A stretch of DNA of 64,000 nt from assembly GCA_028702395.1 (NCBI GenBank), contig JAQVOV010000001.1, positions 3,990 through 67,989 of the forward strand, written 5' to 3'. This stretch comes from Candidatus Omnitrophota bacterium. Lineage in GTDB: Bacteria > Omnitrophota > Gorgyraeia > JABMRN01. A program made the position numbers and the translations under genes. Position 1 is the stretch's first letter. Each line of letters starts with the position of its first letter. Below are positions 22,150 to 58,003 of this stretch, one piece after another. Below the pieces are notes generated by a model. It did not search any database. It was not told the DNA's origin and saw only the letters and a list, made by a program, of their open reading frames with translations.

Positions 22150-22223
22150 TGCCCGATGGTGTAATGGTAGCACAGGTGATTCTGGTTCATCTAGTCTAGG
22201 TTCGAGTCCTAGTTGGGCAACCA
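22150..22223 (+). tRNA. tRNA-Gln (anticodon CTG), ends CCA
   Basis: Acceptor stem TGCCCGA/TTGGGCA (one G-U). D-arm TGTAATGGTAGCACA. Anticodon stem GGTGA/TCATC with loop TTCTGGT. T-arm CTAGG-TTCGAGT-CCTAG. Discriminator A followed by CCA. Confidence 0.7.
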
Positions 22224-25341: not shown

Positions 25342-26727
25342 ATGTCCAGAAAAAGCATTAAAGTAAAACTTTTTTTTATAACGATAAGCATTTTAGTTGT
25401 AGCTGTAATTTTGACAGCTAGTATTAATATCCTCAGGTTTAAAGCTATGTATATAGAGGCATTGCTCGAACGTGCAAGAGCTGATGCCAATGATATGAAA
25501 CAAGGTATTTCCCAAGGATTGAACTATTTTTCGTTGAACAATTTTTCTGACATGACAACTTTTTTAAAGAAGCATCTCAATGAAAAATTCAACTATGCTT
25601 TTGTTGCAGATAATGATAACAAAATACTTTATCATACAGATCCTGCACAAAAAGAAAAACAGTTACAAAAAATCATCTATAAAGATGTTGTTTTTGATGA
25701 TAAAACAAATAGCCATATTGTTTCAACAGGAGAATTTTATGAGACAGTTTTACCATTAATAAAGGATTTCACGGTTGTGGGAACTGTTCACATCGGCATA
25801 GAAAAGAAAATAGTGGATGATAAAGTCAAAGAAATGATATTTCAGACAGTATTGATACTAGGTTTTTTTATTTTTCTGGCAGTCTTGATAATGTACTTAT
25901 TTTTAAAGAGGAATATCACAGATCCAATAGGGAGATTGGAAAGAAAGACCATTAATATCAGTAAAAGCCTGAACTTACCTGTATATGATGAAAAAAGAAA
26001 AGGTGATGAAATTGAGGAGTTCTCTAATTCTTTCGATAAAATGACAGAAGAAATAGAGGCAAAGACTTTAGCATTGGAAGAGGATATAGAAAGAAGAAAA
26101 ATAGTAGAACAAAAACTAAAAGAAAGTTATGAAGAACTTGAAGTAGCTTTTGAAGGAAGCATAAAGGCTATTGCAACAGCTGTTGAAAGCAGAGATCCAT
26201 ATACAGCAGGGCATCAGCAAGGGGTTGCAAGTCTTGCAGTTGCTATAGCAAAAAAAATGGGGTTTAAAGAAAAACATATCAGACAGATATATTTTGCGGC
26301 AATGAGCCATGATATAGGTAAAATAGGGGTGCCAATATCAATATTAACAAAGAAAGAAAAGCTTACAGATGAAGATTTTGCGATCATAAAAAAACATCCG
26401 CAAACAGGATATGAGATCTTGGCAAAAGTGGATTTTCATTGGCCTTTAGCAGAGATCGTAAGACAGCATCACGAAAGGATCAACGGCAAAGGATATCCTC
26501 AAGGGTTAACAGGAGATCAGATGCTTCTAGAGGCAAAAATAATTGCAGTAGCAGATGTCATGGAAGCTATTTCAAAAGCCCGGCCATATAGGGAAGCGCT
26601 GGGAAATGATGTGGCTTTGGCAGAAATAAAAAAATTCCGTGGAGAACAGTTTGACCCGGATGTTGTTGATGCGTGTGTAGAGCTTTTTGAAAAAGAGAAC
26701 TTTGAATTTGATAACAGGAAAAAATAA
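25342..26727 (+). CDS. Membrane sensor HD-GYP phosphodiesterase (c-di-GMP)
   Basis: TM-periplasmic-TM-HAMP-like N-terminus. HD (HDIGKIGVP) and GYP (HHERINGKGYPQGL) motifs. Confidence 0.8.
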   Translation: MSRKSIKVKLFFITISILVVAVILTASINILRFKAMYIEALLERARADANDMKQGISQGLNYFSLNNFSDMTTFLKKHLNEKFNYAFVADNDNKILYHTDPAQKEKQLQKIIYKDVVFDDKTNSHIVSTGEFYETVLPLIKDFTVVGTVHIGIEKKIVDDKVKEMIFQTVLILGFFIFLAVLIMYLFLKRNITDPIGRLERKTINISKSLNLPVYDEKRKGDEIEEFSNSFDKMTEEIEAKTLALEEDIERRKIVEQKLKESYEELEVAFEGSIKAIATAVESRDPYTAGHQQGVASLAVAIAKKMGFKEKHIRQIYFAAMSHDIGKIGVPISILTKKEKLTDEDFAIIKKHPQTGYEILAKVDFHWPLAEIVRQHHERINGKGYPQGLTGDQMLLEAKIIAVADVMEAISKARPYREALGNDVALAEIKKFRGEQFDPDVVDACVELFEKENFEFDNRKK

Positions 26728-27259: not shown

Positions 27260-28476
27260 AAAAGCCTGAACTTTTGGCTCCTGCAGGGGATTGGAGCAGT
27301 TTAAAAACAGCTATTCAATATGGTGCAGATGCAGTATATTTTGGCATAAAGCAGATGAACATGCGCTATAACGCAGACAATTTTGAATATTTAGAGCTTC
27401 CTAAAATAATGAAACTTTTGCATGAAAATAACATAAAAGGCTATCTTGCATTAAACGTTATCTTTTATGACGACGAACTGAATAAAATAAGAAAAATAAT
27501 TGAAAAAGCTAAAAGTTCAGGAGTTGATGCTGTTATTTTATGGGATATGGCTGCTTTAAAAATAGCAAAAGAGTATGATCTTGATATTCACATATCAACA
27601 CAAGCGAGTGTTGCAAATATTGAAGCAGTGAAAATGTATTGGCAAATTGGTGCAAAAAGAATAGTGCTTGCCAGAGAATGTTCATTAAGCAGTATTAAAA
27701 ATATCGTTCAACAAATGAAAAAGGAAAAAATAAACTGCCAAATAGAGACATTTGTTCATGGAGCAATGTGCGTAAGCTTGTCAGGCAGATGTTTTTTATC
27801 GCACGATGCTTTTAATTTATCGGCCAACAGAGGTCAATGTATACAGCCATGTAGAAGGGAATATTTAATAACCGATATACAAGAAGAGGATAAGAAATAT
27901 ATTATTGGACAAGATTATGTTATGAGCGCAAAAGATCTATGTACGATCGATTTTATAGATAAGATCATAAAAACAGGGATACATTCTTTTAAGATAGAAG
28001 GCAGGATGCGTCCTCCGGAATATGTGAGAGAAGTTGTCAGGTCATATAGAGAAGCTATTGATGCTTTTTTTGATAATAGCTTAGATAAAGATAAAAAGGA
28101 AAAAATAAAACAACGCTTGGCAAAAGCGTATAACAGAGGTTTTACAGATGGGTTTTATTTTGAAAAGCCTAAAGATATCGGAGCAAGAATAGGAACAAGC
28201 AAAAATGAAAAAATATTTTCAGGAGAAGTGAAAAAGTATTATAATAGAATAGGAGTTGCAGAGGTCAAGATAAAGAACTGCAGTATAAAACAAGGAGATG
28301 ATCTCCTTTTTTACGGGAAAAATACTCCGGCTGATATTGTGAAAGCGGATGAGATGCAAATGGAGCACAAAAAAATAAAAAAAGCAGAAAAAGGTGATCT
28401 TGTTGCGATAAAAGTTCCGTTTAAAGTTAGGCGAAATGATAAAGTTTTTTTGTACAATTTAAAAAAAGAAGGTTAA
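27256..28476 (+). CDS. Peptidase U32 family protein
   Basis: MKKPELLAPAGD...ADAVYFG N-terminus and conserved Cys cluster typical of U32. Confidence 0.8.
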   Translation: MKKPELLAPAGDWSSLKTAIQYGADAVYFGIKQMNMRYNADNFEYLELPKIMKLLHENNIKGYLALNVIFYDDELNKIRKIIEKAKSSGVDAVILWDMAALKIAKEYDLDIHISTQASVANIEAVKMYWQIGAKRIVLARECSLSSIKNIVQQMKKEKINCQIETFVHGAMCVSLSGRCFLSHDAFNLSANRGQCIQPCRREYLITDIQEEDKKYIIGQDYVMSAKDLCTIDFIDKIIKTGIHSFKIEGRMRPPEYVREVVRSYREAIDAFFDNSLDKDKKEKIKQRLAKAYNRGFTDGFYFEKPKDIGARIGTSKNEKIFSGEVKKYYNRIGVAEVKIKNCSIKQGDDLLFYGKNTPADIVKADEMQMEHKKIKKAEKGDLVAIKVPFKVRRNDKVFLYNLKKEG

Positions 28477-29399
28477 TGATGGATGATAAAGAGGTTTTCA
28501 GGAATATTATTGATAAAAATCCAGATGCTATTTTAATGGTAAATAAAAAAGGAATAGTCAGTTTTGTCAATCCTGAAGCAGAGCGGATGTTTGGAAGGAC
28601 AACTGAAGAGTTCATAGGTAATTTTTTTGGATACCCTTTAGAAGTAGGCAAAACCGGAGAGATAAGTATATTAAGTTCTATGAAAGGATTGCGTACAGCA
28701 GAAATGCAGGTTGTAGAGCTTATGTGGCATCACGAAGATTTTTATTTGGTCACTCTGCGTGATATTACAGGACATAATATAGTTAAAAAACAGCTTGAAA
28801 AAAGCACAGAAAAACTTAAAACTATTTTTAGACAAACAGTAAAAGCACTTGTGTCAGCTGCAGAAAAACGGGATCCTTATACAGCAGGGCATCAGCAAAA
28901 GGTAGCAAAACTCGCATGTACAATAGCAGATCGAATGGACCTGCCTGAAAACCAGAAAGAGGCTGTTGGTATTTCCAGTATTTTGCACGATATTGGAAAG
29001 ATATATGTGCCGGATGCTATTTTAAATAAAATAGGAGGCCTTAGCGATGCTGATTTTGATGCAATTAAAACGCACCCTCAATTCAGTTATGATATTGTCA
29101 AGGAAATAGATTTCCCATGGCCTATTGCAAATATTGTAATACAGCATCATGAAAGATTGGATGGTTCAGGCTATCCTATGAGTTTACGTGATGAAAATAT
29201 TTTGTTGGAAGCTAAGATCATAGGCGTTGCAGATGTTGTTGAAGCAATGTCAGCAGATAGACCATATAGAGTTTCTTTGGGAATAGATAAAGCTCTGGAA
29301 GAGATCGTGAATAACAAGAACAAATTATATGACCCTATAGTAGTGGATATTTGCGTTAAGCTTTTTATGCACGAGAACTTTTCGTTTACGCAAAATTAA
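28476..29399 (+). CDS. PAS-domain HD-GYP phosphodiesterase
   Basis: N-terminal PAS. HD (HDIGKIYVP) and GYP (HHERLDGSGYPMSL) motifs. Confidence 0.75.
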   Translation: MMDDKEVFRNIIDKNPDAILMVNKKGIVSFVNPEAERMFGRTTEEFIGNFFGYPLEVGKTGEISILSSMKGLRTAEMQVVELMWHHEDFYLVTLRDITGHNIVKKQLEKSTEKLKTIFRQTVKALVSAAEKRDPYTAGHQQKVAKLACTIADRMDLPENQKEAVGISSILHDIGKIYVPDAILNKIGGLSDADFDAIKTHPQFSYDIVKEIDFPWPIANIVIQHHERLDGSGYPMSLRDENILLEAKIIGVADVVEAMSADRPYRVSLGIDKALEEIVNNKNKLYDPIVVDICVKLFMHENFSFTQN

Positions 29400-42040: not shown

Positions 42041-42429
42041 GGGGGTGTCCGGAATCGACTTAGACATTACAGGCTTTAAGTTGCATGTAGCGGATGTCAG
42101 TTGGCCGCTTAAAATAACTGGCAAAAACACAAACGCAAAATACGATTCAGTAGCCGAAGCAGAAGCAATTCTAGCTGAGGATGCGTTACAAGTTCCTCAA
42201 TTTGAAGGAACTGGTTCTCTAGTAAGCGCTTTGGCTTATTAATAGGACTTAATCTAACAAAGACGATTAATAGTGTTGCTGTAGCATTGTTGATCGAAAG
42301 ATTACAGCTGCTTGTACATATATCCTGTTTGCCGGAGATATGTGCAAAAAGACAAATAACAAACTAAACATGTAGATACTTTTAGTTTGATGTCCGAGGA
42401 CCGGGGTTCGAGTCCCCGCACCTCCACCA
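42041..42429 (+). ncRNA. ssrA: tmRNA (ssrA), ~389 nt
   Basis: 5' GGGGGUGUCCGGAAUCGAC pairs with the 3' end ...CACCUCC-A-CCA, including the G3:U70 Ala identity pair. 3' T-arm GGACCGGGGUUCGAGUCCCCG matches tmRNA. Internal reading frame ends ...SALAY with double stop UAA-UAG (42240..42245). smpB is present at 3093. Confidence 0.85.
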
Positions 42430-43865: not shown

Positions 43866-45434
43866 ATGCTAATTGCATCAAAAAAACGACACAGAATGAG
43901 ACTTGTTATTCCTGCTTTTCCTGCATTTAATATTTATTCGTATTCGTCACAACGTACAACTGCACTTGGACCGGTTTGCATTGCTACAACAGTCAATCAA
44001 ATGGAAAACTGGGACGCTGAAGTCATTGATGAGAATAATCTTCGTTTATATGGACCTAAAAGTAAGACAGGTGGTGCAGACCATGAGTTTTTACACGTTA
44101 TCAGACCTGCTGATATTGTTGGATTTTATGGGGGATTGACAAGTACCATTCCCAGACTTTATGAACTTGCAAAGTTTTACAAGAAAAGAGGAGTTATTAC
44201 TATTGCAGGAGGACAACACTTTGTTGGTGAGAATATAAAAGAAGCTTTGTATTCTGATATTGATTATGTTGTTATAGGTGAAGGAGAGGAAACGATCAGA
44301 GAACTTATAGAAGGGTTAGAAGGAAAAAGAAACATAGATGAAATAAAAGGTATTGCGTACATAAAAAATGGAAACATTATTCAGACTCCAACAAGAGAAC
44401 CTATAACTGACTTTGAGAAATTACCTTTACCTGATTTTTCATTGGTCAGGTATGCTAGAATAGAAAATTATCCGGTTGAAAGAATAAGAGGATGCGGAAT
44501 GAACTGCGAGTTCTGTACTGTCAAAGGAAGTCCAAGATGTGCCTCTGTTGAAAGATTATTTGAGAGGATAAGTTTTTTGGTTGAAACAAGAGCAGCCAAA
44601 AGATTTTTCATCATAGATGATCTTTTTGGACAGCAAAGAGAAGAAACTATAAGGTTCTGTTATATGCTTCGTGATTATCAGAAAAGGATACACAAAAGAT
44701 TGGATGTGGGTGTTCAGATAAGATTAGATAAGGCTAAGGATACAGAGATGCTTTCTGCAATGCGCCAGGCAGGTATTAACTTTGTAGCTATTGGTTTTGA
44801 ATCTCCTATCAGGGAAGAGTTAAAAGCAATGAACAAACATCTGAACCCTGAAGAAATGATAGCACTCACAAGTATTTTTAGAAAATTCGGATTTCTTATA
44901 CATGGTATGTTCATTTTTGGATATCCTGTTCAAGAAGGGGTTAATTTCAAAATGCCTATAAAGGAACGTATTAAACAGTATAAGGATTTTATCAGAAAAT
45001 GTAAGATAGACACAATACAGATCCTGTTACCAGGGCCTTTGCCTGGTACTGAATTCAGAGAAAGACTTAAAAAGAAAAACAGGCTGTATCCTCTTAAAGA
45101 TATTGGCTGGGAATATTATGACGGAAGTTTTCCGCTTTTTGAACCTGACGAACCTTTGACTGCTGAAGAACTTCAAAAAGCACAAAAAGAGATCATGGGA
45201 AATTTTTACCAATTCAAATACATGTTCATGATAGCATTTAACATTTTCTCTTTTCCCTCAATAATATTTTTTTTAAATAACATCAAAGTTGGCTGGAGAC
45301 GGTGGTATAGACCATGGCGAAATGATCTTGTCCGTTTTGGTGGCTGGATGACTATGAGAAAATGGACAACAGAATTCAAGAAAAACACTTTTCAAGAGAA
45401 ATTGAACAAGGCCAAAGAGTGTATAAGGAAATAA
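43866..45434 (+). CDS. B12-binding (class B) radical SAM enzyme
   Basis: N-terminal cobalamin-binding Rossmann-like domain (...VGFYGG...ITIAGGQH...VVIGEGE). Radical SAM core with CGMNCEFC (CxxxCxxC). Hydrophobic C-terminal segment. Confidence 0.8.
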   Translation: MLIASKKRHRMRLVIPAFPAFNIYSYSSQRTTALGPVCIATTVNQMENWDAEVIDENNLRLYGPKSKTGGADHEFLHVIRPADIVGFYGGLTSTIPRLYELAKFYKKRGVITIAGGQHFVGENIKEALYSDIDYVVIGEGEETIRELIEGLEGKRNIDEIKGIAYIKNGNIIQTPTREPITDFEKLPLPDFSLVRYARIENYPVERIRGCGMNCEFCTVKGSPRCASVERLFERISFLVETRAAKRFFIIDDLFGQQREETIRFCYMLRDYQKRIHKRLDVGVQIRLDKAKDTEMLSAMRQAGINFVAIGFESPIREELKAMNKHLNPEEMIALTSIFRKFGFLIHGMFIFGYPVQEGVNFKMPIKERIKQYKDFIRKCKIDTIQILLPGPLPGTEFRERLKKKNRLYPLKDIGWEYYDGSFPLFEPDEPLTAEELQKAQKEIMGNFYQFKYMFMIAFNIFSFPSIIFFLNNIKVGWRRWYRPWRNDLVRFGGWMTMRKWTTEFKKNTFQEKLNKAKECIRK

Positions 45435-46869: not shown

Positions 46870-47049
46870 AACAATCCAGAGTAGCAACTTCACCTTCATC
46901 ACTTTGGGACCACTTCTATACGTAAACTCGGACCACTTCTACACAGACTGCGGACCAGGTCTAATCTGTAAAAATAAGTTATGGCGATATGAATTGACTC
47001 TCCCTATATGTATAGTATAATAATATAATACACAACTTGAGGAGAAAAA

Positions 47050-47370
47050 ATGGTTTTTTCGGAAAAACTAAAAAAACAGTTTAAGGATCTTATTTCAAGT
47101 CGTAGTGGTCTTTATTTCAAAGACTATGACCTACAAACTTTAGAAAAAACAGTTGTTCTTAGAACACAACAGCGTAGATGCGAGTCTTTCGAAGAGTACT
47201 ATTCATACTTGATTGCTTCCAAAGAAAAAGAATCTGAATTTCGAGAAATAATCAATCTTTTAACTATACAGCATACATGTTTCTTCAGAAATGAACCGCA
47301 ATTTAAAGTTCTAAAAGAAAAAGTTCTTCCAGAGATATTATTAGATACGATCGAAAGGTTGATAGGGTAA
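47050..47370 (+). CDS. CheR N-terminal (all-alpha) domain-only protein; likely a remnant of a chemotaxis methyltransferase
   Basis: HTCFFRNEPQFKVLKEKVLPEI resembles the CheR N-domain. Only 106 aa, with no SAM-MTase domain. An IR element follows immediately. Confidence 0.4.
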   Translation: MVFSEKLKKQFKDLISSRSGLYFKDYDLQTLEKTVVLRTQQRRCESFEEYYSYLIASKEKESEFREIINLLTIQHTCFFRNEPQFKVLKEKVLPEILLDTIERLIG

Positions 47371-47374
47371 CAAG

Positions 47375-47605
47375 GAGTTTGAGACTAGAGACCAGAAACC
47401 AGCGGCCAGAAACCAGGGACCAGAGATAATTGATTTAAAGATAAAAGATAAAAGATACAAAGAAACAAAGATACAAAGGTTTTAAAAGATATAAAAAGTT
47501 AATAGGAGGTTATGATTAGAGTCTAGGATAAATGTTTTAAAGAATACCGGTTACAAACCGTCCTGGTTTCTGGTACATGGTCACTGATTTCTAAATGCTA
47601 TAAAG
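47375..47605. repeat. Type-A IR element (GACCAGA-type arms) upstream of a response-regulator gene
   Basis: gagactagagaccagaaaccagcggccagaaaccagggaccagag...ttgatttaaagataaaagataaaagatac...cctggtttctggtacatggtcactgatttctaaatgctataaaggagataaatATG. Confidence 0.8.
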
Positions 47606-47614
47606 GAGATAAAT

Positions 47615-47989
47615 ATGGCAAAAAAAGTATTGTATATTGAGGATTCACCTACTGATGCCGTTCTTATAAAAGAGCTTTTAGAAAAGGCAGGATTAGATGT
47701 TACGATAGCAAAAACAGGAAAGGAAGGAATAGAAAAAGCCAAAGAGATCAAGCCTGACCTTGTTCTGCTGGATTGTATATTGCCTGATATAAGCGGATTT
47801 GATGTTTGTTCAAAAATTCGTAAAGATGGCAGCCTTCATAAGACATTGATCATAATGATAACTATAAAAGATAGCTTGGATGAGATATCAAAAGCTTTTA
47901 TATTGGGCGCAGATGATTATGTAATAAAACCGTCTATGCCTGAATTTTTAGTAAGAAAGATAAAATTGTATTTAAATGAAAAAAGGTAA
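47615..47989 (+). CDS. Single-domain response regulator (CheY-like receiver)
   Basis: EDSPTD...LDCILPD...KPS receiver motifs. Confidence 0.8.
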   Translation: MAKKVLYIEDSPTDAVLIKELLEKAGLDVTIAKTGKEGIEKAKEIKPDLVLLDCILPDISGFDVCSKIRKDGSLHKTLIIMITIKDSLDEISKAFILGADDYVIKPSMPEFLVRKIKLYLNEKR

Positions 47990-47996
47990 GGGTTAT

Positions 47997-48178
47997 TGCA
48001 AAAACAATAAGTGTTTTAATAATTGATGATTCCTGTTTAATACGGGAGCTTGTGATGGCGCTTTTAACAGCAGATAATGATATTTAAGGCATAGCAACTG
48101 CAGAGAATGGGAAAGAAGGATTAGCAAAGGTAGAACCATATGATGAAATAGAGAGGTTGTTAAGCGAGTGAGTGATGA
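47997..48178 (+). pseudogene. CheB/CheY-like receiver gene fragment (no start codon, in-frame TAA, truncated by repeats)
   Basis: Translation AKTISVLIIDDSCLIRELVMALLTADNDI*GIATAENGKEGLAKVEPYDEI resembles the CheB N-terminus (VLxVDDSxxxRxxLxxxLxxDPDIEVVGTAxNG). It runs into the repeat block. Confidence 0.45.
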
Positions 48179-48730
48179 GGCTGTGCGTCATGAGTAGTGT
48201 GTCTTGAGTCTGCTGTGGAAGACTAAATGTTAGCCACGAGCTACGCGCAGCGAGCCACGAGCTTGTGGAACGTACTTAGTAGAGCTTGATATGGGTTGGT
48301 GATAATGAAGGGGTGATAGGGAATAATTTTAGTTTTACTGGTTGAGCTAGTTGTACTGGTTGGAGATTGGCAAAGCGCATATCGTAAAGTGTGGGGAATT
48401 TAGCCACAAGCTTCGAGCTGCGCGCTGCGCGTGAACGTCCTGAGAGAAGTTTTTGTAGTGGCAGACCTATGTTTCTGCCCTAAAAGTAAAAAGAAAATCG
48501 CGAAAGCGCATATCGCATATCGTAGTGTAAGGTACTAAATTGATTCACAAGCTATGAGCTTCGTGCTACGCGCTAGTTGAACGTACTGAATAGGGATGAG
48601 AGGCGTGTTAGAAACCAGAGATTAGAGACCAGAGAACTTTGGACCGCTTACAGCAGCAGTCCAGAGATTGATATAATGAAAGTATGCCGGATAATATGAA
48701 GATGTTCTGAAAAAAAATAAGGATAATGCT

Positions 48731-49603
48731 ATGCTCAAGAATAAAAAAAACATTACACAGATACAGAATGATGGGCAAGAGCTTAAAAAAATAAAAGAAG
48801 AGCTGGAAATACAGACTTGGGCAATGAAAAAAACAAATGAAGCAATAAAGCTTCTATATAAAGAACTAGAGCAGAAGAATGAAAAATTAAAAGAACTAAA
48901 TAAATTAAAATCCGAATTTGTTTCAATTGTATCTCATGAATTCCGCACACCTCTTTCTTGTATAAAAGAAAGTATAAACATTACACTAGATGGAACACTA
49001 GGCGACCTTAATCAAGAACAGAAAGAGTTCTTGATTGCAGCAAAAGAGAATATAGACAGATTATCACGGCTTATCAATGATGTTCTTGATTATCAGAAAG
49101 TAGAAGCAGGAAAGATGGAATATTTTATTGCAGAACATGATCTGAACATGGTTGTTAAAGATGCTTGCAGGATAATTCAGCCTTTAGCGGACAAAAAGGG
49201 ATTGACCCTTAACTTTCAAGCTAATGAGCATGGGTGTAGAATGAAATTAGATAAAGATAAGATCATTCAAGTTCTTCTTAATTTGATCAATAATGCCATT
49301 AAATTCACTGAAAGAGGAAATGTAGATATTGTAGTTAAAGATGAACAGGACAATTTCCATATTCTAGTTAAGGATACAGGTATAGGTATTGCAAAAGAGG
49401 ATATCCCAAGATTGTTTGAAAGTTTTGAGCAGGTCGGCAAAGGCAAAAAAACAGGCGGAACCGGTTTAGGATTAGCTATTTCCAAAAAGATCATTGAGGC
49501 GCATAATGGAAAGATCTGGGTAGAGTCTGAACAAGGACAAGGTACAACCTTTCATTTTACTTTGCCTAAAAAGCACAATAGAGGTAAATACGACTTAAGG
49601 TGA
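48731..49603 (+). CDS. Cytoplasmic histidine kinase (coiled coil + HisKA + HATPase_c)
   Basis: H-box SHEFRTPL. N, G1 and G2 boxes (NNAIKFT, DTGIGI, GGTGLGL). Confidence 0.8.
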   Translation: MLKNKKNITQIQNDGQELKKIKEELEIQTWAMKKTNEAIKLLYKELEQKNEKLKELNKLKSEFVSIVSHEFRTPLSCIKESINITLDGTLGDLNQEQKEFLIAAKENIDRLSRLINDVLDYQKVEAGKMEYFIAEHDLNMVVKDACRIIQPLADKKGLTLNFQANEHGCRMKLDKDKIIQVLLNLINNAIKFTERGNVDIVVKDEQDNFHILVKDTGIGIAKEDIPRLFESFEQVGKGKKTGGTGLGLAISKKIIEAHNGKIWVESEQGQGTTFHFTLPKKHNRGKYDLR

Positions 49604-49652: not shown

Positions 49653-50045
49653 ATGGCAAAAATCAAAAAAAATAAGGTGCTTATAATCGAAGATGAATCA
49701 GATATGGTCAAAATATTGAACAAAAGGTTTTCCCAGAATGAATTTGATGTTCTGGTTTCATCCGAAGGGTCTCAAGGAGTATCTATTGCACAAAATAACA
49801 AGCCTGACATAATTGTATTGGACCTGATGCTGCCTACTGGGGATGGGTTAGAAGTTTTAGAATCTCTTAACGGATTGCCAGAAACAAAAGATATTCCTGT
49901 AATAGTTGTTACAGGTAATAAAGATGAAAGGTATAAAAAGCAGGTTATAGACAAAGGTGTTGCAGCATATCTTGAAAAACCATATAGTTTTGAAACGTTA
50001 ATGGACATTATCAATAATATTTTCAAAAATAAAAAAGGAATATAA
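49653..50045 (+). CDS. Single-domain response regulator
   Basis: LIIEDE...LDLMLP...TGN...YLEKP motifs. Confidence 0.8.
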   Translation: MAKIKKNKVLIIEDESDMVKILNKRFSQNEFDVLVSSEGSQGVSIAQNNKPDIIVLDLMLPTGDGLEVLESLNGLPETKDIPVIVVTGNKDERYKKQVIDKGVAAYLEKPYSFETLMDIINNIFKNKKGI

Positions 50046-50046
50046 A

Positions 50047-52200
50047 ATGTCACAGCTTATAAATGCTTTATTAAAAGAAAATCTTATAACAGCAGAACAG
50101 CTCGAAGATGCTAAGGATAAGCAAATGGGAGAGAAAAAACCTATACACGAAGTATTATGCGAAATGGGTTTTGTCAAAGAAGAAGATGTTCTCAATATCT
50201 TATCAAAGGTTTTCGGGTTTCAATTGCTCGACATAAAAAAAGAGAAAATAGATCCTTCCGTCGTGAAAATGATACCTTATGATAAAGCTAAAAAATGGGG
50301 GGTTTTCCCTTTGCGTAAAGAAAATGAAAAAATAGTTGTAGCTATGAGCGACCCATTGGATGTTATAACTATAGATGAGATACGGATAATGGTAAATGCA
50401 GAAGTTAAACCTATTTTAGCTACAAAAAAAGACATAGCTAATTTGTGCGAAACACACTATCAGATGGATGAAGCAATTTACGATATTATAAAGAACATAG
50501 TTGAAGATACTACTATAAAGATCGTTGAAGAGAAAAAAGTTTCCGAAGAGTTTTTTGATGTTTCACAAATAAAAGGAGATGCTTCTCCTATAATACGATT
50601 GGTCCGTTTGATAATAGGGGATGCTATTAAAGGAAATGCCAGTGATATTCATATAGAGCCATATCAAAATTTTTTCGGAGTTCGTTACAGGATAGATGGA
50701 TATTTAAAAAAAGTAATGAAAGTACCAAGTAAACTTTTCCCTCAGGTTGTTGCCAGCATTAAAGTATTGGCAAGACTTGATATTGCCGAACATCAGAAAG
50801 CACAAGATGGGCGTGCTCAAGCAGTAGTTAAAGATCATAGTATAGATCTTAGGATCTCAATAGTCCCAGTTATTCATGGAGAGAAAGTTGTTATCAGATT
50901 GCTGGACAAAGCAACTGCACAGGTTGAATTATCAAAGCTGGGGATGGATCAAAAAGATCTGAAGGATTTCAAAGAAACCATTGCTTTGCCGCAAGGCATG
51001 ATACTTGTAACAGGACCTACCGGATCAGGAAAAACCACAACTCTTTATGCAGCATTAAATACCATTAAGAACGAAAAAGTGAATATAATAACGATCGAAG
51101 ATCCTATAGAATATCTTATGGACGGGATCACTCAGATACAGCTTAACCCTGCGAAAAATGTAACTTTTGTTACAGCTCTAAGGAATGTATTGAGACAGGA
51201 CCCTAACATTATTTTAATTGGGGAGATAAGGGATAACGAAACTGCAGACATAGCTTTCAGAGCTTCTATGACAAGGCATTTGGTTTTTTCTGCTATTCAT
51301 ACTAATAATTCAATAGCATCTATTTCAAGACTCAGAAATATAGGGTTGGAACCGTATATAATTAGTTCTTCTTTAAGTATGATAGTTGCACAAAGACTTG
51401 TTAGGGTGAACTGCCCTCATTGCAAGGAAAGTTATCAGCCGGAAGACAATCTTGTAGGGAAATTCCATTCTCTTATAGAAGCTTTTAAGATAACTGATTT
51501 TTTTAGAGGTAAAGGATGTCAAATGTGCGGATATAGCGGTTATTCAGGAAGAATAGCTATTTACGAGGTCTTAAAAATAGATGAAGAAATAAAGGAGCTT
51601 ATTAATTCAAATGCTTCTGAAGGAGAAATTTTGGTGCAAGCAAAAAAGAACGGGTTTAAGACTCTGGCTGAAAATGGCATGTTAAAAATATCCCAAGGGA
51701 TAACTACTTTAGAGGAAGTAAACAATGTACTTGAAGCTGCCGAAGAAAGAACGCCCCATGAAATAAAAAAAGGAAACCTAGTTGAAATAGAGGAAATATT
51801 CGAAGAAAATAAAAAAAATGATGATAAAAAAACAAAGATATTAACAGTTGATGATGAACCGGATATACTCAAGATCTTAAATAAAAGGCTTACAAATGCG
51901 GGATATGAAGTCATTCAAGCAAAAAACGGGAAACAGGCTATTGAAAGTGCTTTCAAGGAAAGACCGGATCTTATTATTATGGACATTATGATGCCTGAAA
52001 TGGATGGGATCGAAGCAACAAAAAGGATAAGGGCACAGCTGCAGACAGCAGCTATTCCTATAATAATGTTAACTGCTAAAAAGGATAAACAAAGTGAGCT
52101 AAAAGGTATAGATGTGGGAGCAGATGATTATATTACCAAGCCTTTTGATAATGAAAAGCTAATTGCTAGGATAGAAATGCTTTTAAGGAGAAGTCGTTAA
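50047..52200 (+). CDS. GspE/PilB-family secretion/pilus-assembly ATPase with N-terminal T2SSE_N domain and C-terminal receiver (REC) domain fusion
   Basis: T2SSE_N (MSQLINALLKENLITAEQLEDA...). Walker A GPTGSGKTT. Tetracysteine CPHC...CQMC. C-terminal KILTVDDEPD...IMDIMMP...MLTAK...YITKPF receiver. Confidence 0.85.
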   Translation: MSQLINALLKENLITAEQLEDAKDKQMGEKKPIHEVLCEMGFVKEEDVLNILSKVFGFQLLDIKKEKIDPSVVKMIPYDKAKKWGVFPLRKENEKIVVAMSDPLDVITIDEIRIMVNAEVKPILATKKDIANLCETHYQMDEAIYDIIKNIVEDTTIKIVEEKKVSEEFFDVSQIKGDASPIIRLVRLIIGDAIKGNASDIHIEPYQNFFGVRYRIDGYLKKVMKVPSKLFPQVVASIKVLARLDIAEHQKAQDGRAQAVVKDHSIDLRISIVPVIHGEKVVIRLLDKATAQVELSKLGMDQKDLKDFKETIALPQGMILVTGPTGSGKTTTLYAALNTIKNEKVNIITIEDPIEYLMDGITQIQLNPAKNVTFVTALRNVLRQDPNIILIGEIRDNETADIAFRASMTRHLVFSAIHTNNSIASISRLRNIGLEPYIISSSLSMIVAQRLVRVNCPHCKESYQPEDNLVGKFHSLIEAFKITDFFRGKGCQMCGYSGYSGRIAIYEVLKIDEEIKELINSNASEGEILVQAKKNGFKTLAENGMLKISQGITTLEEVNNVLEAAEERTPHEIKKGNLVEIEEIFEENKKNDDKKTKILTVDDEPDILKILNKRLTNAGYEVIQAKNGKQAIESAFKERPDLIIMDIMMPEMDGIEATKRIRAQLQTAAIPIIMLTAKKDKQSELKGIDVGADDYITKPFDNEKLIARIEMLLRRSR

Positions 52201-52255: not shown

Positions 52256-55200
52256 ATGTTTGCTGCAGCAATGCTGAAAAGTAGAGCTTGGATCCCTTAT
52301 CAAAACTATAATGGAGGTTTTGTGAAAAGTAAAAAACCAAAGGGAAGATCCTTTAACATTGAGAAAAAAACAGTTCTAGGAGTTTTGGTTATACTGCTTA
52401 TTGGAGTTTTAGGGATATACTGGACTATATATAAAACAAATAAACAGATGCAAAAAGACTTTAGTGCAAACACTCATTTAATAGCAAATGTTCTAGATGT
52501 AAAGAAGATCCAGTCTCTTACCGGAACAACAGAAGATCTGTATAAACCTCAATATAAAGAACTTAAAGAAAAGTTCAAAGATGTTTGCGCTACCCATCCT
52601 GAATATAGGTTTCTTTATTTAATGGGCCGCAGGGGAGACGGAAAAGTGTTTTTCTTTTTAGACAGTGAATCTGCCGGATCAGAAAACGAATCTCCTCCAG
52701 GTCAGATATATAAAGAACTCTCCCCTGATCTGATGAAAGTATTCTACGAAAAGACACCTATTATAAAAGGACCCAATATAGATAGATGGGGAACATGGAT
52801 ATCATCATTTGTCCCCATAATCGATAACAAAACGAATTCTTTAGTTGCAGTTATAGGTTTGGACATTGATTATAACTTATGGAAAAAAGAAATAGGTGCT
52901 CAGGTCTTTTTGCCTATTGGATTGGTTATATCATTAATGATACTTATGATCTCAAGCCTTGTTGCAAACCAGAAAACGAACCATGTTTTGGCGAAGCCTG
53001 TTCAGAGACTTTTATTGGTGCCTTTAGCAATTGTGTTGTTCATGTTAGTTGGAGGGTTCAGCCTTATTTTGATAAGAACTCAACAGCAAAACATGCAGAG
53101 ATCTGCACAACAATTGATGGAGAATATCAGTTTAAAACTTAGCGAAATGATAAAAGAGAAAATAGATGCAATGGAGGTTATTCAAGAAGTTATTCTGAAT
53201 GATGAAAATGTACTTGATCAGTTGAAGTCCAAAGATATAGATTCCCTGCTAAGAGAGTATTCTCCGGTATTCGAAAAAATAAAAGACAACTATGCTATAA
53301 CACATTTTTATTTCCATGGGCCTGATAGGATCAATCTGCTAAGACTCCATAAGCCTGAAAAAAAGGGCGACCTTATTGATAGAACAACTATTGTTGAAGC
53401 GGAAAGAACAGGGAGAACATTTTCAGGGATAGAACTTGGACCTTTAGGAACTTTTACTTTAAGGGTCGTAAAACCCATATATTACGATGAAATACTTATA
53501 GGCTATCTGGAACTTGGGAAAGAAATAGAGGATATTATAAGTAATCTGCATAAAGATAAGAATGTTGAAGTCGAGATTTTCATAATGAAAGATATATTGG
53601 ATAAGACTCTTTGGGAACAGGGAATGAGCATGCTTGGAAGAAAATTCGACTGGGATAGATATCCTGATAAGGTAAGTATATATTCTTCTTTGAACAGTTT
53701 TTCTTTGGATCTTGATAATTATATCAGTAAAAAAAGTAAGGGAAATGTACAAGCATCGAAAGATATCAAGATAAACGGAAAAACATGTAAAGCTATGACC
53801 TTGTTTCTTAAAGATGTTTCCGGCAGTGAAGTTGGTGAAATGATAGTATTGCTAGATGTCTCTTCTATGCATAAAACATTTAGGCATGTTCTTTTTTTAA
53901 CGATATCAATAGCAATAGTTCTTTTATCATCTTTAATAGGGTTTCTATATGTTATGCTGAAACGTACGGAACAAAGTATTCATTTCCAACAGGCAAAATT
54001 GGTCGGGAGTGAGGCCCGTTTAAATGCAACTCTTCATTCAATCGGTGATGCTGTAATAAGTACAGATGTCAATGGTCATGTTGAAGATATGAATGTTGTG
54101 GCAGAACATTTAACAGGATGGACATTGTTGGAGGCTTTAGGCAAAAAAATTGAGGATATTTTTCAGATTGTTAACGGCAGCACAAAAAAAATTGTAGACA
54201 ATCCCATTAAAGAGGTTTTAGAAACGAAAAAGACAGTTATGCTTTTAGACCATACTATACTTATTTCCCGTACGGGAGCAGAGTATCATATATCAGATAG
54301 TGCAGCACCAATTCATAATAATCAGGATACTGTTATTGGAGCTGTTCTGGTGTTTCGGGATGCAAGTAAAGAATATCAGATGAGAAAAGAGATCGAAGAG
54401 GGCTTTGAAAGGTTCAATCAGCTTGCCCAGCAAAGCAAAAAAGTCACATGGGAAGTGAATGCAGATGGAGTTTACACATATGTCAGTCCTATTATGGAAT
54501 GGGTATCGGGTTATAGACCTGATGAGCTGGTAGGAAAAAAACATTTCTATGATCTGTGTCCTAAAAGCGGAAGTAAAAAATGTAAAATGGAAGTCTTAAA
54601 ATATTTTGAAAGAAAAGAATCTTTTGTTAAAATGGAAAGACAGGTTGAATGCAAAGAAGATAAAATTATTTGGGTAGAGACTGATGGTATGCCTGTTTTT
54701 GGCGTTAACGGAGAATTATCAGGATACAGGGGATCTGACTCTGATATAACTGAAAGGAAAAAAGCAGAACAAGAATTGAAAGATAGCGAAGATAACTATC
54801 GCAATTTGTTTGAAAGTTCCATGGATGCAATAATGGTAATTAATGCCGGTAATGACAACCGTTATATAAAAGGGAATAAGCAAGCTATTAAGATGTTCAA
54901 TTGTAAAGATGAAAAAGAATTTCTTTCTTTTTCCCCGATCACGTTTTCTCCCAAGCTGCAACCTGACGGGAGGGAATCTTCAGACAAGGCCAGGGAAATG
55001 ATAAGAACAGCCATTGAAAAAGGGAGTCATTTTTTTGAATGGACACATAAGCGTGTTACAGGAGAAGAATTCCCTGCTAGTGTTTTACTTTCAAGAGTGG
55101 AAACAAAAGGGCAGATTTTTGTATTGGCAACACTTCGAGATCTTACTGAACGTAAGAAAATAGAAAAAGTTCTTCAGCAAAACATAGATAGATTTCAAGG

Positions 55201-56275
55201 GATAGCTGACAGCATGGCTGATTGGATATGGGAGGTAGATTCAAAGATGAAGTATACATATTGTTCCAGCAAGGTCATAAATGTGCTTGGCTACTCCTTT
55301 GAGGAAATACTCGGGAAGTCGCCTTTGGATTTTATTGTACCTGAGGAACGTGAAAGTGCGCTAAAACTTTTTAAAGAGAGTGCTTCTCAAAAAAAGCAGA
55401 TAAAGAACTTTGAACAGTGGAATCTTACTAAGGATGGAAAGCGTGTATGTTTGTCGACAAGCGGTGTTCCTGTTGTAGATGAGAACGGGGAGTTAATTGG
55501 ATATAGAGGGGTTGACGCTGACATTACAGAGAGAAAAAGAGCTGAACAGGAAGTTAAAAGGGCGATGGCAATAAAAAATGAATTCACATCAATGGTCTCA
55601 CATGAACTACGTACCCCGCTTGCAGTCATAATGGAAGGCATCAAAATAGTTTCTGATGGTTCATGCGGAGCGATAAACGATGAGCAAAAAGATTATTTGA
55701 ACACTGCAGAAAGAAATGTAGAAAGACTTGGCCGTTTGATAAATGATGTTTTGGATATCCAGAAAATGGAAGCAGGTATGCAGGAATTCAATATGAAAAA
55801 GGATGATATTAACAGCTGTATCAGTTTTCTCAAAAGCGCTATGGAGCCAGTAGCAAAAAAACTTGGATTAACGCTGGAATTAAATTTGAATAAAGAGATA
55901 CCGCAAATAATGTTTGATAAAGATAAGATAGAACAAGTTTTGACAAATCTTCTTAATAATGCCATGAAGTTCACTGAAAAAGGAAAGATCAGTATTATAA
56001 CAGGAACTGAAAGCAATTGTGTTAAAGTTTCGGTAAAAGATACAGGGCCTGGCATAAAAAAAGAGGACACAGGAAAGATCTTTGATAAATTTGAACAACT
56101 TTTAACCGGTAATGAGAGAAAACCAGGAGGAACAGGGTTAGGATTGGCAATATGTAAAGAGATCATTCTTCAGCATGGAGGAAAGATCTGGGCAGAATCT
56201 GAAATAGGTAAAGGGTCTACTATTTCATTTTTATTACCAATAAAGGAAAGAAGGATGGTGCATCATGAAAAATAA
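52256..56275 (+). CDS. Large membrane sensor histidine kinase (periplasmic sensor + TM + multiple PAS/PAC + HisKA + HATPase_c)
   Basis: Two TM segments flank a ~180-aa extracytoplasmic region. At least 4 PAS-like blocks. H-box SHELRTPL, N/G boxes (NNAMKFT, DTGPGI, GGTGLGL). Confidence 0.8.
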   Translation: MFAAAMLKSRAWIPYQNYNGGFVKSKKPKGRSFNIEKKTVLGVLVILLIGVLGIYWTIYKTNKQMQKDFSANTHLIANVLDVKKIQSLTGTTEDLYKPQYKELKEKFKDVCATHPEYRFLYLMGRRGDGKVFFFLDSESAGSENESPPGQIYKELSPDLMKVFYEKTPIIKGPNIDRWGTWISSFVPIIDNKTNSLVAVIGLDIDYNLWKKEIGAQVFLPIGLVISLMILMISSLVANQKTNHVLAKPVQRLLLVPLAIVLFMLVGGFSLILIRTQQQNMQRSAQQLMENISLKLSEMIKEKIDAMEVIQEVILNDENVLDQLKSKDIDSLLREYSPVFEKIKDNYAITHFYFHGPDRINLLRLHKPEKKGDLIDRTTIVEAERTGRTFSGIELGPLGTFTLRVVKPIYYDEILIGYLELGKEIEDIISNLHKDKNVEVEIFIMKDILDKTLWEQGMSMLGRKFDWDRYPDKVSIYSSLNSFSLDLDNYISKKSKGNVQASKDIKINGKTCKAMTLFLKDVSGSEVGEMIVLLDVSSMHKTFRHVLFLTISIAIVLLSSLIGFLYVMLKRTEQSIHFQQAKLVGSEARLNATLHSIGDAVISTDVNGHVEDMNVVAEHLTGWTLLEALGKKIEDIFQIVNGSTKKIVDNPIKEVLETKKTVMLLDHTILISRTGAEYHISDSAAPIHNNQDTVIGAVLVFRDASKEYQMRKEIEEGFERFNQLAQQSKKVTWEVNADGVYTYVSPIMEWVSGYRPDELVGKKHFYDLCPKSGSKKCKMEVLKYFERKESFVKMERQVECKEDKIIWVETDGMPVFGVNGELSGYRGSDSDITERKKAEQELKDSEDNYRNLFESSMDAIMVINAGNDNRYIKGNKQAIKMFNCKDEKEFLSFSPITFSPKLQPDGRESSDKAREMIRTAIEKGSHFFEWTHKRVTGEEFPASVLLSRVETKGQIFVLATLRDLTERKKIEKVLQQNIDRFQGIADSMADWIWEVDSKMKYTYCSSKVINVLGYSFEEILGKSPLDFIVPEERESALKLFKESASQKKQIKNFEQWNLTKDGKRVCLSTSGVPVVDENGELIGYRGVDADITERKRAEQEVKRAMAIKNEFTSMVSHELRTPLAVIMEGIKIVSDGSCGAINDEQKDYLNTAERNVERLGRLINDVLDIQKMEAGMQEFNMKKDDINSCISFLKSAMEPVAKKLGLTLELNLNKEIPQIMFDKDKIEQVLTNLLNNAMKFTEKGKISIITGTESNCVKVSVKDTGPGIKKEDTGKIFDKFEQLLTGNERKPGGTGLGLAICKEIILQHGGKIWAESEIGKGSTISFLLPIKERRMVHHEK

Positions 56276-56639
56276 GATCCTTGTTGTTGATGATGAATTG
56301 GATCTGCGTAAGCTTGTTGCAGCAAGATTATCAAAGGCCGGATATGATGTCATTGAAGCCAGTAACGGACAAGAAGGTTTGGATCTTATGAAAAAAGAAA
56401 ATCCTGATATGGTTCTTTTAGACCTTTTAATGCCTGTTATGGATGGATATGCAGTTTGCCGCACAGCAAAAAAAGATGAGACTATAAAAAATATTCCCAT
56501 AATATTATTCGCAGCAAAATTAGCCTCTAAAACCATAGATAAAGAAGTAAAAGAGTTAGGAGCTATAGATTTTATAGGAAAACCATTTGAGGCAAAAGAA
56601 CTTTTGGAAAAGATCGAGAAGGTGTTAAGCGCGAGGTAG
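56265..56639 (+). CDS. Single-domain response regulator (overlaps the HK stop)
   Basis: VVDDELD...LLDLLMP...AAK...FIGKPF motifs. Confidence 0.8.
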   Translation: MKNKILVVDDELDLRKLVAARLSKAGYDVIEASNGQEGLDLMKKENPDMVLLDLLMPVMDGYAVCRTAKKDETIKNIPIILFAAKLASKTIDKEVKELGAIDFIGKPFEAKELLEKIEKVLSAR

Positions 56640-56829: not shown

Positions 56830-57612
56830 ATGCCAAAAAAACGAACAATTCTTGTCGTGGATGATGAAAAGGATTTTGTAAAGGTCTTGAAAGGGCGTCT
56901 TGAAAAAAAAGGGTATAAAGTAATAGTTGCTTATAATGGAAAAGAGGGTTTGGAAATATTGAAAGACAATAGCCCTGATCTGATAGTTTTGGATATTAAC
57001 ATGCCTGTTATGGGCGGAATAGAATTTTATAACCATATTTGTGATGAAAAAGCTATTTCAATGTATCCAGTACTTGTATTAACTGCGCGTGGCGAGTTAA
57101 AGGATATTTTTAAAGAGATGAACGCAGATGGGTTTATAGCCAAACCATTCAATATAGAAAAATTATACAAAGAAATAAATGTTATTATGCGTAAAAGATA
57201 TGGAAGTGATAGTAGACGTTTAAGATCAAATATTCCAAAAGAAGTTCTTATTGTTGATGATAATAATGAAGTTTTCAACAAAATAGCAGTAGCTTTTTTA
57301 AACGCCGGATACATTGTGCATGCATCTAATAATGGAATGTCTACAATAGAAAAAATAAATGAACATATTCCTGATCTGCTGGTTATCAGATTGGAATTAT
57401 CCGATATGCGCGGAGATGTTATAGTTTCTAAGCTTAGGAAAATGCCAAAAACTGCGGATCTTCCGGTCGTGTTGTACTCCCCTGAAATGGCAGGAGGTAA
57501 TCCTGTAATAGAAGGCATCATATGCGCGAAAACACGAGTAGAGAAAATAGTAGAAACAGATAAACCACAGGAGCTCTTGCGGGCAGCAGCTGATACCTTG
57601 GGAATAACCTAA
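56830..57612 (+). CDS. Response regulator with two tandem receiver domains
   Basis: REC1 (VVDDEKD...LDINMP...LTAR...AKPF). REC2 (IVDDNNE...LVIRLEL...). Confidence 0.7.
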   Translation: MPKKRTILVVDDEKDFVKVLKGRLEKKGYKVIVAYNGKEGLEILKDNSPDLIVLDINMPVMGGIEFYNHICDEKAISMYPVLVLTARGELKDIFKEMNADGFIAKPFNIEKLYKEINVIMRKRYGSDSRRLRSNIPKEVLIVDDNNEVFNKIAVAFLNAGYIVHASNNGMSTIEKINEHIPDLLVIRLELSDMRGDVIVSKLRKMPKTADLPVVLYSPEMAGGNPVIEGIICAKTRVEKIVETDKPQELLRAAADTLGIT

Positions 57613-57622
57613 AAGGAGTTAA

Positions 57623-58003
57623 ATGATGGAAGTAAAAAAAGTATTGATCGTAGAAGATAATTTTGAGATCATCAAAGTTCTCAAAAAAAGATTGGAGGAC
57701 AATGATTTTTCTGTTGATGTGGCAGAAGGGGGATATGCTGTTCTTGGTTTTTTGAAAGAGGAGAACGGACCGGATGTGGTTATTTTAGATATAATGATAC
57801 CGGAGCGCAACGGAATGGAACTTATATGTTCAATAAAAAACAAATGGGCGAACACGAAAATATTTATTTTTTCTGCACATGATGAATATAAAAGGAAAAT
57901 GCATCTTTACAAGGAATATGTTTGTGCTTTTTTCTCTAAAGTAGATGGGATCGAAAATCTTATAGAAGCTATAAAAGATGAATTGGCAAAGCAAACAGGC
58001 TAA
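57623..58003 (+). CDS. Single-domain response regulator
   Basis: IVEDNFE...LDIMIPE...FSAHD receiver motifs. Confidence 0.7.
   Translation: MMEVKKVLIVEDNFEIIKVLKKRLEDNDFSVDVAEGGYAVLGFLKEENGPDVVILDIMIPERNGMELICSIKNKWANTKIFIFSAHDEYKRKMHLYKEYVCAFFSKVDGIENLIEAIKDELAKQTG

Follow-up and report, generated by a model that had tools for sequence, protein, structure and literature searches.

How signaling is coupled to PilB, the extension ATPase of type IV pili, is an active question. The known regulators (PilZ/FimX, cyclic di-GMP (c-di-GMP), EmvR, DrdR, PixG and PilG) act in trans, through structural mechanisms that are for the most part unresolved. In Xanthomonas, the phosphorylated form of EmvR, a single receiver (REC) domain, binds PilB and lowers its ATPase activity non-competitively, in a manner that needs both its Asp and its Thr (PMC11973254), while DrdR, in which one of two tandem RECs is a pseudo-receiver, binds both PilB and PilT and makes them more active (PMC13507683). 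In the Tax1 system of Synechocystis (PixL, PixG, PixH) and the Pil-Chp system of Pseudomonas aeruginosa (ChpA, PilG, PilH), a kinase feeds at least two receivers, one acting on PilB and one serving as antagonist or sink (PMC11181946, PMC11656802); only phosphorylated PixG binds PilB1, and PixH antagonizes it (PMC11181946). We analyzed a 64,000-nt stretch of a Candidatus Omnitrophota genome (contig JAQVOV010000001.1, positions 3,990 to 67,989; hereafter the window) that encodes, at 50047..52200 on the plus strand, a PilB-like ATPase whose C-terminus is itself a receiver, which we call PilB-REC. Receiver control of a PilB motor is thus already known, and its hard-wiring by fusion is the new element. 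With moderate confidence, we read PilB-REC as a PilB-class extension motor of a type IV filament machine that is controlled in cis by phosphorylation of the fused receiver.

PilB-REC is encoded by an uninterrupted open reading frame (ORF) of 717 aa. A Shine-Dalgarno sequence, AGGA, is located 7 nt 5' of its ATG, and a single nucleotide separates this ATG from the TAA stop of the gene upstream (49653..50045), which encodes a stand-alone receiver, REC-A. Pfam identifies an MshEN domain (PF05157, residues 56-142, E 4.5e-18), a T2SSE ATPase domain (PF00437, residues 178-559, E 4e-130, 434 bits) and a Response_reg domain (PF00072, residues 598-710, E 5e-33, 114 bits for a gathering cutoff of 30.2). 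With the help of an alignment to a Geobacter PilB structure (PDB 5zfr), the protein can be divided into an N1/MshEN (GSPII) domain with degenerate c-di-GMP motifs (residues 1-150, 50047..50496), N2 and C-terminal ATPase domains (residues 178-562, 50578..51732), a disordered, charged and unconserved linker of variable length, here about 30 residues (564-593, 51736..51825), and an OmpR/PhoB-like receiver followed by the stop codon (residues 594-717, 51826..52200), all on the plus strand. The ATPase carries a Walker A motif (GPTGSGKT, 323-330), an Asp box (350-356), a Walker B motif (389-396), a His box (409-420) and a tetracysteine motif (Cys456/459/491/494). Extension ATPases are told from PilT-type retraction ATPases by the N1 (GSPII/MshEN) domain together with the tetracysteine Zn motif, and both are present in PilB-REC. 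Compared with CheY D12, D13, D57, T87 and K109, the fused receiver has the acidic pair (D602, D603), the phospho-acceptor Asp (D646), the Thr (T676) and the Lys (K698), as well as Y695. An earlier note, made from the sequence alone, had described a 717-aa protein combining T2SSE_N, a Walker-A ATPase with a tetracysteine motif and a C-terminal REC with its D-D-T-K residues, starting where the gene of a stand-alone receiver stops; Pfam and the motif check agree with it on each of these points.

The closest structures to residues 3-562 are PilBs of type IVa pili (T4aP): 5zfr (E 1.2e-136), 5tsh, 6olj and 3jc8 (E 1e-132 to 1e-136). The alignment of GspE starts only at residue 76 and ranks behind them in the PDB search. 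N1, N2-CTD, Walker A and B, Asp and His boxes and tetracysteine are common to PilB-REC and the T4aP PilBs of Geobacter metallireducens and G. sulfurreducens, Myxococcus xanthus (3jc8) and Thermus (PilF). PilB-REC differs from them by the additional C-terminal receiver on its linker of about 30 residues, by the loss of the c-di-GMP RLG motifs found in the Geobacter and Myxococcus proteins, and, in the window, by not being encoded with pil genes. The top NCBIfam and PDB matches of the fused receiver are the receivers of PhoB, RpaB, YycF and PhoP, with PleD also ranking high. An AlphaFold2 model computed from the family alignment (mean pLDDT 79.9) shows N1, ATPase and REC as folded, with disorder at residues 162-178 and 564-593. 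Confidence is mostly 75-95 in the ATPase region, falling to 57-61 across residues 351-380, and about 78-93 in the receiver, which adopts a (beta-alpha)5 pattern; it is below 50 in the linker, and the receiver is flexibly tethered to the motor in this model.

An NCBI protein from a Candidatus Omnitrophica metagenome-assembled genome (MAG) has the same sequence as the window protein, and about 100 further 90%-identity clusters from independent assemblies, 48-58% identical to it, have the same PF05157-PF00437-PF00072 order. Members are mostly about 700 aa long (664-764 aa) and belong mostly to Omnitrophota, with some annotated as Elusimicrobia (Elusimicrobiota) or Firestonebacteria and others carried by a WOR-3 bacterium (UniRef A0A350H7X6) and a deltaproteobacterial MAG. 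We built a profile from 26 members, searched 1.84 billion 50%-identity representatives exhaustively and inspected the best 150 or so: 80 were colinear with the profile through the receiver, and a domain scan found a C-terminal REC in 95. Since the architecture recurs in about 100 clusters and in 80-95 representatives, an origin by frameshift or misassembly is excluded, and the fusion is a conserved family trait. The domain search proposed in the earlier note thus recovers both the fusion and its homologs. The note had also called a C-terminal REC on such an ATPase uncommon; this holds for GspE/PilB ATPases overall, but a large conserved family is defined by this architecture, and a variant with the REC at the N-terminus has been catalogued (PMC5013675).

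Conservation was counted in an alignment of 98 full-length members. The Walker A Lys, the Asp box, the Walker B Glu, both His-box His and the four Cys are kept in 97-98 of them, Cys456, Cys459, Cys491 and Cys494 being found in all 98. In the receiver, D603, D646, T676 and K698 are present in 98/98 and D602 in 95/98; a lack of the phospho-acceptor Asp in the fused REC, which the earlier note named among the findings that would overturn its reading, is not seen in these sequences. Residues of the alpha4-beta5-alpha5 region (E684, G691-Y695, K698-P699, R708, L712) are invariant among 26 sequences, and the linker shows no conservation in the family alignment. In an all-against-all receiver comparison, the fused RECs share 55-70% identity among themselves and no more than 44% with any neighboring REC, a pattern that fits a common origin of the fused receivers. 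In a neighbor-joining tree of the ATPase cores, 94 of the 95 C-terminal-REC proteins fall together on the same side of a split. That side also holds 21 others (truncated, PilZ-tailed and pseudo-REC proteins and three N-terminal-REC proteins), and the core identities overlap (40-59% versus 38-58%), so the tree is compatible with a single origin of the C-terminal-REC ATPases and does not prove it.

Several proteins depart from the standard layout. One carries three tandem RECs (P0122), six have a double zinc ribbon inserted ahead of the REC (P0164, P0173, P0177, P0181, P0187, P0189), and two have degenerate pseudo-receivers (P0242, P0259). In three others (P0152, P0155, P0218), a PilZ domain occupies the C-terminal position of the REC on a PilB-like ATPase, and one shows the reversed order REC-MshEN-T2SSE (P0206). 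Four of the zinc-ribbon proteins (P0177, P0181, P0187, P0189) end in C-terminal tails of about 100-750 aa. Two Alloalcanivorax loci (L008, L016) that we considered as fusions in a cultured organism were rejected, as a separate REC-PAS-PilZ gene is followed there by GspE and GspF. These loci are a gammaproteobacterial cluster resembling type II secretion system (T2SS) or mannose-sensitive hemagglutinin (MSHA) loci, in which genes for a CheB-like methylesterase and the REC-PAS-PilZ protein lie directly upstream of GspE and GspF, an unfused analog of receiver-linked motor control in a cultured genus. A single-protein search of genome contigs gave generic REC matches through the MDIMMPEM pattern and no usable family loci.

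Fused sensory modules have been described in such motors. Vibrio cholerae MshE (5htl) has the same MshEN domain on a T2SSE ATPase and embodies the same idea of a sensory module within the motor (PMC5013675), but its input is c-di-GMP, whereas that of PilB-REC would be phosphorylation at the opposite end of the protein. Wang et al. (2016; PMC5013675, Suppl. Table 4) catalogued REC-MshEN-T2SSE (Gmet_3473 of Geobacter metallireducens) and MshEN-T2SSE-cNMPbind proteins without functional study. In the former the receiver precedes the platform-binding N1 domain at the N-terminus, in contrast to the C-terminal receiver of PilB-REC (598-710), and the order MshEN-T2SSE-REC is absent from that catalog. 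A 2024 review of PilB control does not mention a receiver-fused PilB (PMC11656802), and our literature search found no description of a C-terminal REC on PilB or GspE, which is not proof of absence. Database annotations of the family are generic, and the literature that we searched apparently contains no description of it. In the FimX-PilZ-PilB systems of Xanthomonas and Pseudomonas, PilZ is reported to bind PilB and to promote its function (PMC11656802; PMC8389850). The regulator there is of the PilZ family and acts in trans, while PilB-REC proteins carry a REC and the three sister proteins named above a fused PilZ.

We then asked what remains of the c-di-GMP receptor in the MshEN domain. This receptor consists of two tandem 24-residue motifs, RLGxx(L/V/I)(L/V/I)xxG(L/V/I)(L/V/I)xxxxLxxxLxxQ, and replacing residues at the R, G and Q positions of XpsE removes its c-di-GMP binding (Wang et al. 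2016, PMC5013675). The register was fixed by a phmmer alignment to Geobacter PilB (5zfr), which has both RLG triads. In the window protein, Q3-L4-I5 replaces R-L-G in motif 1 and an N stands at the Gly position, while in motif 2 P32-I33-H34 replaces R-L-G and V55 takes the place of the terminal Gln. The same holds for the family: motif 2 has P for Arg in 90/98, Q or H for Gly in 90/98 and V or I at the terminal Gln position in 78/98; at the Arg position of motif 1 the six most frequent residues do not include Arg (S, A, I, T, K and Q lead), and its first Gly position is I, L, T, F, V or A. PilB-REC proteins thus do not carry the two tandem motifs of the receptor. Both are degenerate, unlike those of MshE, in ways that resemble the binding-abolishing substitutions of XpsE, and c-di-GMP binding is predicted to be lost across the family. 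The genome uses c-di-GMP although this motif of PilB-REC is degenerate: the window encodes a stand-alone PilZ protein (5604-5948) and two HD-GYP-type (HD_5) proteins (25342-26727 and 28476-29399), of which one has an sCache_3_2 sensor and the other PAS.

PilB-REC lies among signaling genes, all on the plus strand. Upstream, a 290-aa sensor-less histidine kinase with HisKA and HATPase_c domains (48731..49603) precedes REC-A, a single-domain receiver with canonical residues (Pfam E 2.2e-25). Downstream follow a non-hybrid 1339-aa histidine kinase with dCache_3, three PAS, HisKA and HATPase_c domains (52256..56275); REC-B, a single-domain receiver (56265..56639, Pfam E 7.9e-26) whose gene overlaps the stop of this kinase by 11 nt and in which Thr87 is replaced by Ala; a tandem REC protein in which Pfam finds two stretches (56830..57612); and a single-domain receiver with residues E-D-D-S-F-K (57623..58003, Pfam E 4e-21). 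The CheY residue check shows the N-terminal receiver of the tandem protein as canonical and its C-terminal half as a pseudo-receiver (Asp57 to Arg, Lys109 to Glu). The two histidine kinases, one of them the 1339-aa multi-PAS protein, and the five receiver proteins including a dual-REC protein that the earlier note placed within about 10 kb are all recovered by Pfam. A scan for promoters and terminators gave no enrichment over shuffles and no terminator-like site on the plus strand between 48.7 and 58 kb.

Pfam finds no DNA-binding domain among the proteins of the cluster, as the earlier note had claimed; a REC-helix-turn-helix protein does occur in two relatives (L001, L006). The multi-step phosphorelay that the note proposed fares less well. 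Neither kinase in the window has a REC of its own and no Hpt domain is matched among the cluster ORFs by Pfam, so that one or two kinases feeding several competing receivers by single-step transfer fits better. Hybrid kinases, Hpt or CheA occur in some relatives.

The context was compared at the loci of 12 relatives, giving 13 with the window. All 12 relatives have a kinase- and REC-rich context. A histidine kinase is encoded at most 10 kb from PilB-REC in 13/13 loci, and in 11/13 the gene directly upstream encodes a REC, often at a distance of 1-12 nt. A Cache/PAS kinase occupies the same position in three relatives (L087, L002, L001). REC-A and the upstream RECs of L001, L002 and L087 form one orthogroup (41-46% identity), and REC-B belongs to another with RECs of L087, L002, L004, L001 and the Firestonebacteria locus, being 44-57% identical to the post-kinase RECs of L087, L002 and L004 and to the L005_up receiver. 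The recurrent module consists of REC-A, PilB-REC, a Cache/PAS kinase, REC-B and further RECs. Adjacency of kinase and PilB-REC in 13 loci is a genomic association only. A radical SAM gene of about 520-540 aa also lies within about 3-6 kb of PilB-REC in the window (43866-45434) and in two relatives (L090, 18247-19821; L004, 5312-6928). The protein is of the B12-binding type in the window and L090 and combines radical SAM with DUF4070 in L004, and its recurrence could be conserved synteny or coincidence.

Like EmvR and DrdR, the PilB-REC receiver lacks a DNA-binding output and would act on a PilB motor, and the window also encodes a tandem REC. EmvR and DrdR act in trans, whereas the receiver of PilB-REC is covalent and in cis, with a 1:1 stoichiometry and six receivers per hexamer. 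The pseudo-receiver is the N-terminal half of DrdR and the C-terminal half of the tandem REC in the window.

In one relative, PilB-REC adjoins a complete chemosensory gene set. The order at this locus (L088) is PilB-REC, CheR-TPR, two CheW, a methyl-accepting chemotaxis protein (MCP), CheA, CheY, CheB, REC and a Cache/PAS kinase, reminiscent of Tax1 and Pil-Chp. We ran the L088 Che proteins against the window by tblastn. L088 CheR (aa 1-97 of 502) is matched at 47050-47340 with 52% identity, within a 106-aa ORF that is a CheR remnant (47050..47370, plus strand, Pfam CheR_N E 2e-06). An intact CheY-like single-domain receiver with residues E-D-D-T-Y-K (47615..47989, plus strand, Pfam Response_reg E 1.3e-24) is an ortholog, by reciprocal best match at 56% identity, of the CheY that follows CheA in L088. 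L088 CheB (aa 3-45 of 348) is matched with 53% identity at 48001-48129 on the plus strand, where a receiver-domain fragment of about 43 aa with a stop in its sequence is a pseudogene remnant. The same search gave no trace of CheA, CheW or MCP in the window, so the chemosensory core that stands in full beside PilB-REC in L088 is missing here. The core of the 290-aa kinase shares 45-55% identity with those of kinases next to PilB-REC in relatives, and aa 6-56 of this protein align to residues 432-482 of the L087 kinase; it is probably a sensor-less deletion derivative of a Cache/PAS kinase. Judging from these alignments, the genome appears to have lost its Che input and kept a two-component one. 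By comparison with Tax1 and Pil-Chp, PilB-REC has its output receiver inside the motor and without a PATAN adaptor, and in the window the Che core (CheA, CheW, MCP) is deleted while classical Cache/PAS kinases remain.

The stretch from 47050 to 48730 is decayed, with about 600 nt of non-coding DNA between the CheB fragment and the sensor-less kinase. It and its surroundings hold short tandem repeats with units of 7-23 nt at 47381-47478, 48608-48635 and 46907-46957, with units (GAGACCA)n and GACCAGAAACCAGC, (AAAGATAC)n, and a 23-nt unit GGACCACTTCTACAC... Copies of the GAGACCA type flank the CheY gene and the CheB fragment, and an imperfect 32-nt inverted repeat is found at 47386-47417 and 47562-47593. 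Tandem repeats of 7-14 nt flank the truncated genes. The repeats may have been left by deletions or may form a small repeat element.

Gene order in two relatives links the family to filament machines. In L004, PilB-REC is directly followed by T2SSF/PilC and then by three prepilins with leaders KG|FTLTE, RG|FSLAE and RG|FTLVE, the first of which also matches T2SSG. In L089, a prepilin (QG|FTFVE) is encoded two genes downstream of PilB-REC. In at least two lineages, the family therefore holds the pilB slot of a type IV filament operon. This linkage to PilC and prepilins, that to Che genes, the architecture, the conserved residues, the breadth of the family and the gene context are direct observations.

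On this basis, we keep the proposal of the earlier note that phosphorylation controls the motor directly rather than through transcription as the best reading of a filament motor, the machine being a type IV pilus or possibly a T2SS-like pseudopilus. The neighboring kinases, that is, the 1339-aa Cache/PAS kinase and perhaps the 290-aa sensor-less kinase, would pass phosphate to Asp646, with CheA as the donor in some relatives. OmpR/PhoB-class receivers dimerize through their alpha4-beta5-alpha5 face when phosphorylated. This face of the phosphorylated fused receiver would pair with the receiver of the neighboring protomer or dock on the ATPase, altering the activity of the hexamer or its engagement with the PilC/PilM platform, so that pilus extension would be switched post-translationally and without transcription. 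REC-A, which is translationally coupled, and REC-B may compete for phosphoryl groups and, in the manner of PixH and PilH, serve as sinks or antagonists. The receiver seems to stand in for the c-di-GMP input, given that the whole family has lost the MshEN binding motif. Here we infer the kinase-receiver pairing, the sign of regulation and the identity of the filament in this genome.

We also considered a bolder form of cis control, which we regard as doubtful, in which a tactic circuit complete in itself would have the motor as its response regulator and, in these lineages, would have replaced the c-di-GMP input. When phosphorylated, the six tethered receivers of a hexamer would pair across neighboring protomers and lock or release the C2-symmetric rotary cycle, making a cooperative sub-second extension switch, a pilus counterpart of CheY on the flagellar switch, which REC-A and REC-B would tune as phosphate sinks. 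If true, ultra-small, host-dependent Omnitrophota would fire pili on ligands sensed by Cache/PAS kinases or MCPs.

Several observations weigh against cis control of a filament motor in this genome. No PilC, pilin, PilMNOPQ or secretin gene was found in the 64-kb window by Pfam on essentially all ORFs and a prepilin-leader scan, and pilus genes are absent within 10 kb of PilB-REC in 10 of 12 relatives. PilB-REC scores below the NCBIfam equivalog cutoffs of both PilB (TIGR02538, 588.7 for 675.65) and GspE (TIGR02533, 543.1 for 630.25); as neither is reached, we term the protein PilB-like and not an equivalog of PilB or GspE. T4aP clusters are nearly universal in Omnitrophota, with proposed roles in host attachment (Seymour et al., PMC10066038), and separate clusters of this kind could carry their own PilB, PilB-REC being then a paralog with another role. 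The mode of dimerization or docking is drawn from similarity to PhoB-type receivers and from surface conservation only. Finally, this copy may be impaired: decayed Che genes and a truncated kinase adjoin it, and codon 410 (AGG, 51274-51276) encodes Arg beside the first His of the His box, at a position that is Gly in 97 of 98 relatives. G410R could be a motor-impairing variant or a sequencing error. A416 and I417 of the same box replace the usual T and L.

The alternative that survives best, although we find it unlikely, is that the receiver, whether phosphorylated or not, is a recruitment or localization module that sets where pili form rather than how fast, with the ATPase chemistry itself unregulated; it would take the motor to pilus bases or poles, or draw REC-A and the kinase to the motor. 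The long disordered tether suits such reach and capture. Phosphorylated PixG in Synechocystis (PMC11181946) and PilG in P. aeruginosa (PMC11656802) act largely through polar localization of the extension motor, and the REC of FimX is required for localization even without a phospho-acceptor (PMC11656802). EmvR and DrdR, on the other hand, alter PilB ATPase activity directly, and spatial targeting may matter less in Omnitrophota, which are described as mostly ultra-small cells (PMC10066038). Sequence data do not separate localization from allosteric control.

It is rather improbable that PilB-REC is a signaling paralog, an ATPase co-opted into the two-component or chemosensory circuit as a nucleotide-state-dependent component or phosphate sink, with a canonical PilB encoded elsewhere. 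The lack of pilus genes in the window and around most relatives would be expected of such a protein, whose conserved partners are signaling genes and not pilus genes. T4aP clusters have been described elsewhere in Omnitrophota genomes (PMC10066038), and M. xanthus PilB is reported to have a signaling role in the regulation of exopolysaccharide (PMC5544727). Yet the catalytic motifs and the Zn-binding cysteines are all conserved as in working motors, as is the N1 domain, the part that contacts the platform in other systems, and L004 has PilB-REC in the pilB slot upstream of pilC and three prepilins, with a prepilin nearby in L089. In other bacteria, moreover, pilB often lies apart from the remaining pil genes.

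An artifact of assembly or frameshift, or a dead gene, is highly improbable: truncated CheR and CheB, the sensor-less kinase and tandem-repeat scars upstream, the G410R substitution unmatched among 98 relatives and a split glycine-cleavage gene in the window speak for it, but the uninterrupted architecture recurs in hundreds of independent assemblies, and the ORF is intact, preceded by a Shine-Dalgarno sequence and translationally coupled. The window copy deviates from the family at 4 of 156 highly conserved columns, where family members deviate at a median of 2 and at no more than 14. It is no outlier in this respect, and pseudogenization is unsupported, with G410R still a caveat. An artifact is effectively excluded, and the caveat concerns the function of this one copy.

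The rest of the window contains a few other features. The gene for subunit 1 of the glycine-cleavage P-protein is split into two ORFs (31312-31974 and 32058-32648) with an 83-nt gap, covering Pfam GDC-P positions 2-195 and 248-427; the syntenic gene in L089 is a single 445-aa ORF, and the split is probably a disrupted gene or an assembly error. We identified a 6S RNA (6277-6435, 65.5 bits), a tRNA-Gln(CTG) (22150-22223), SmpB (3093-3557) and a tmRNA (42041-42429, 171 bits) whose tag, as given by ARAGORN, is unusually short (ALAY). An IS110-family transposase (DEDD_Tnp_IS110 and Transposase_20, 37463-38533) lies between the glycine-cleavage/lipoate genes and the tmRNA, and the region at 38-40 kb has the highest G+C of the window (0.41) and few ORFs. 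The possibility that the cluster is a genomic island at the tmRNA gene (42041-42429) was rejected, with no integrase nearby and a uniform G+C.

Returning to control of the motor by its fused receiver, the covalent link between PilB and receiver fixes both the stoichiometry of regulator to motor and their proximity, and the family offers a structural and biochemical handle on the regulation of type IV pilus motors by receivers. That PilZ, a PilB partner, is fused at the position of the REC in sister proteins supports the C-terminus of PilB as a docking site for regulators, a Rosetta-stone argument for a general role of this face. The fusion has been kept across several uncultivated phyla with its catalytic and phospho-acceptor residues intact. 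Type 4a pili of Omnitrophota are thought to mediate attachment to hosts or prey, and the module described here points to an environmentally gated control of attachment that would not depend on transcription.

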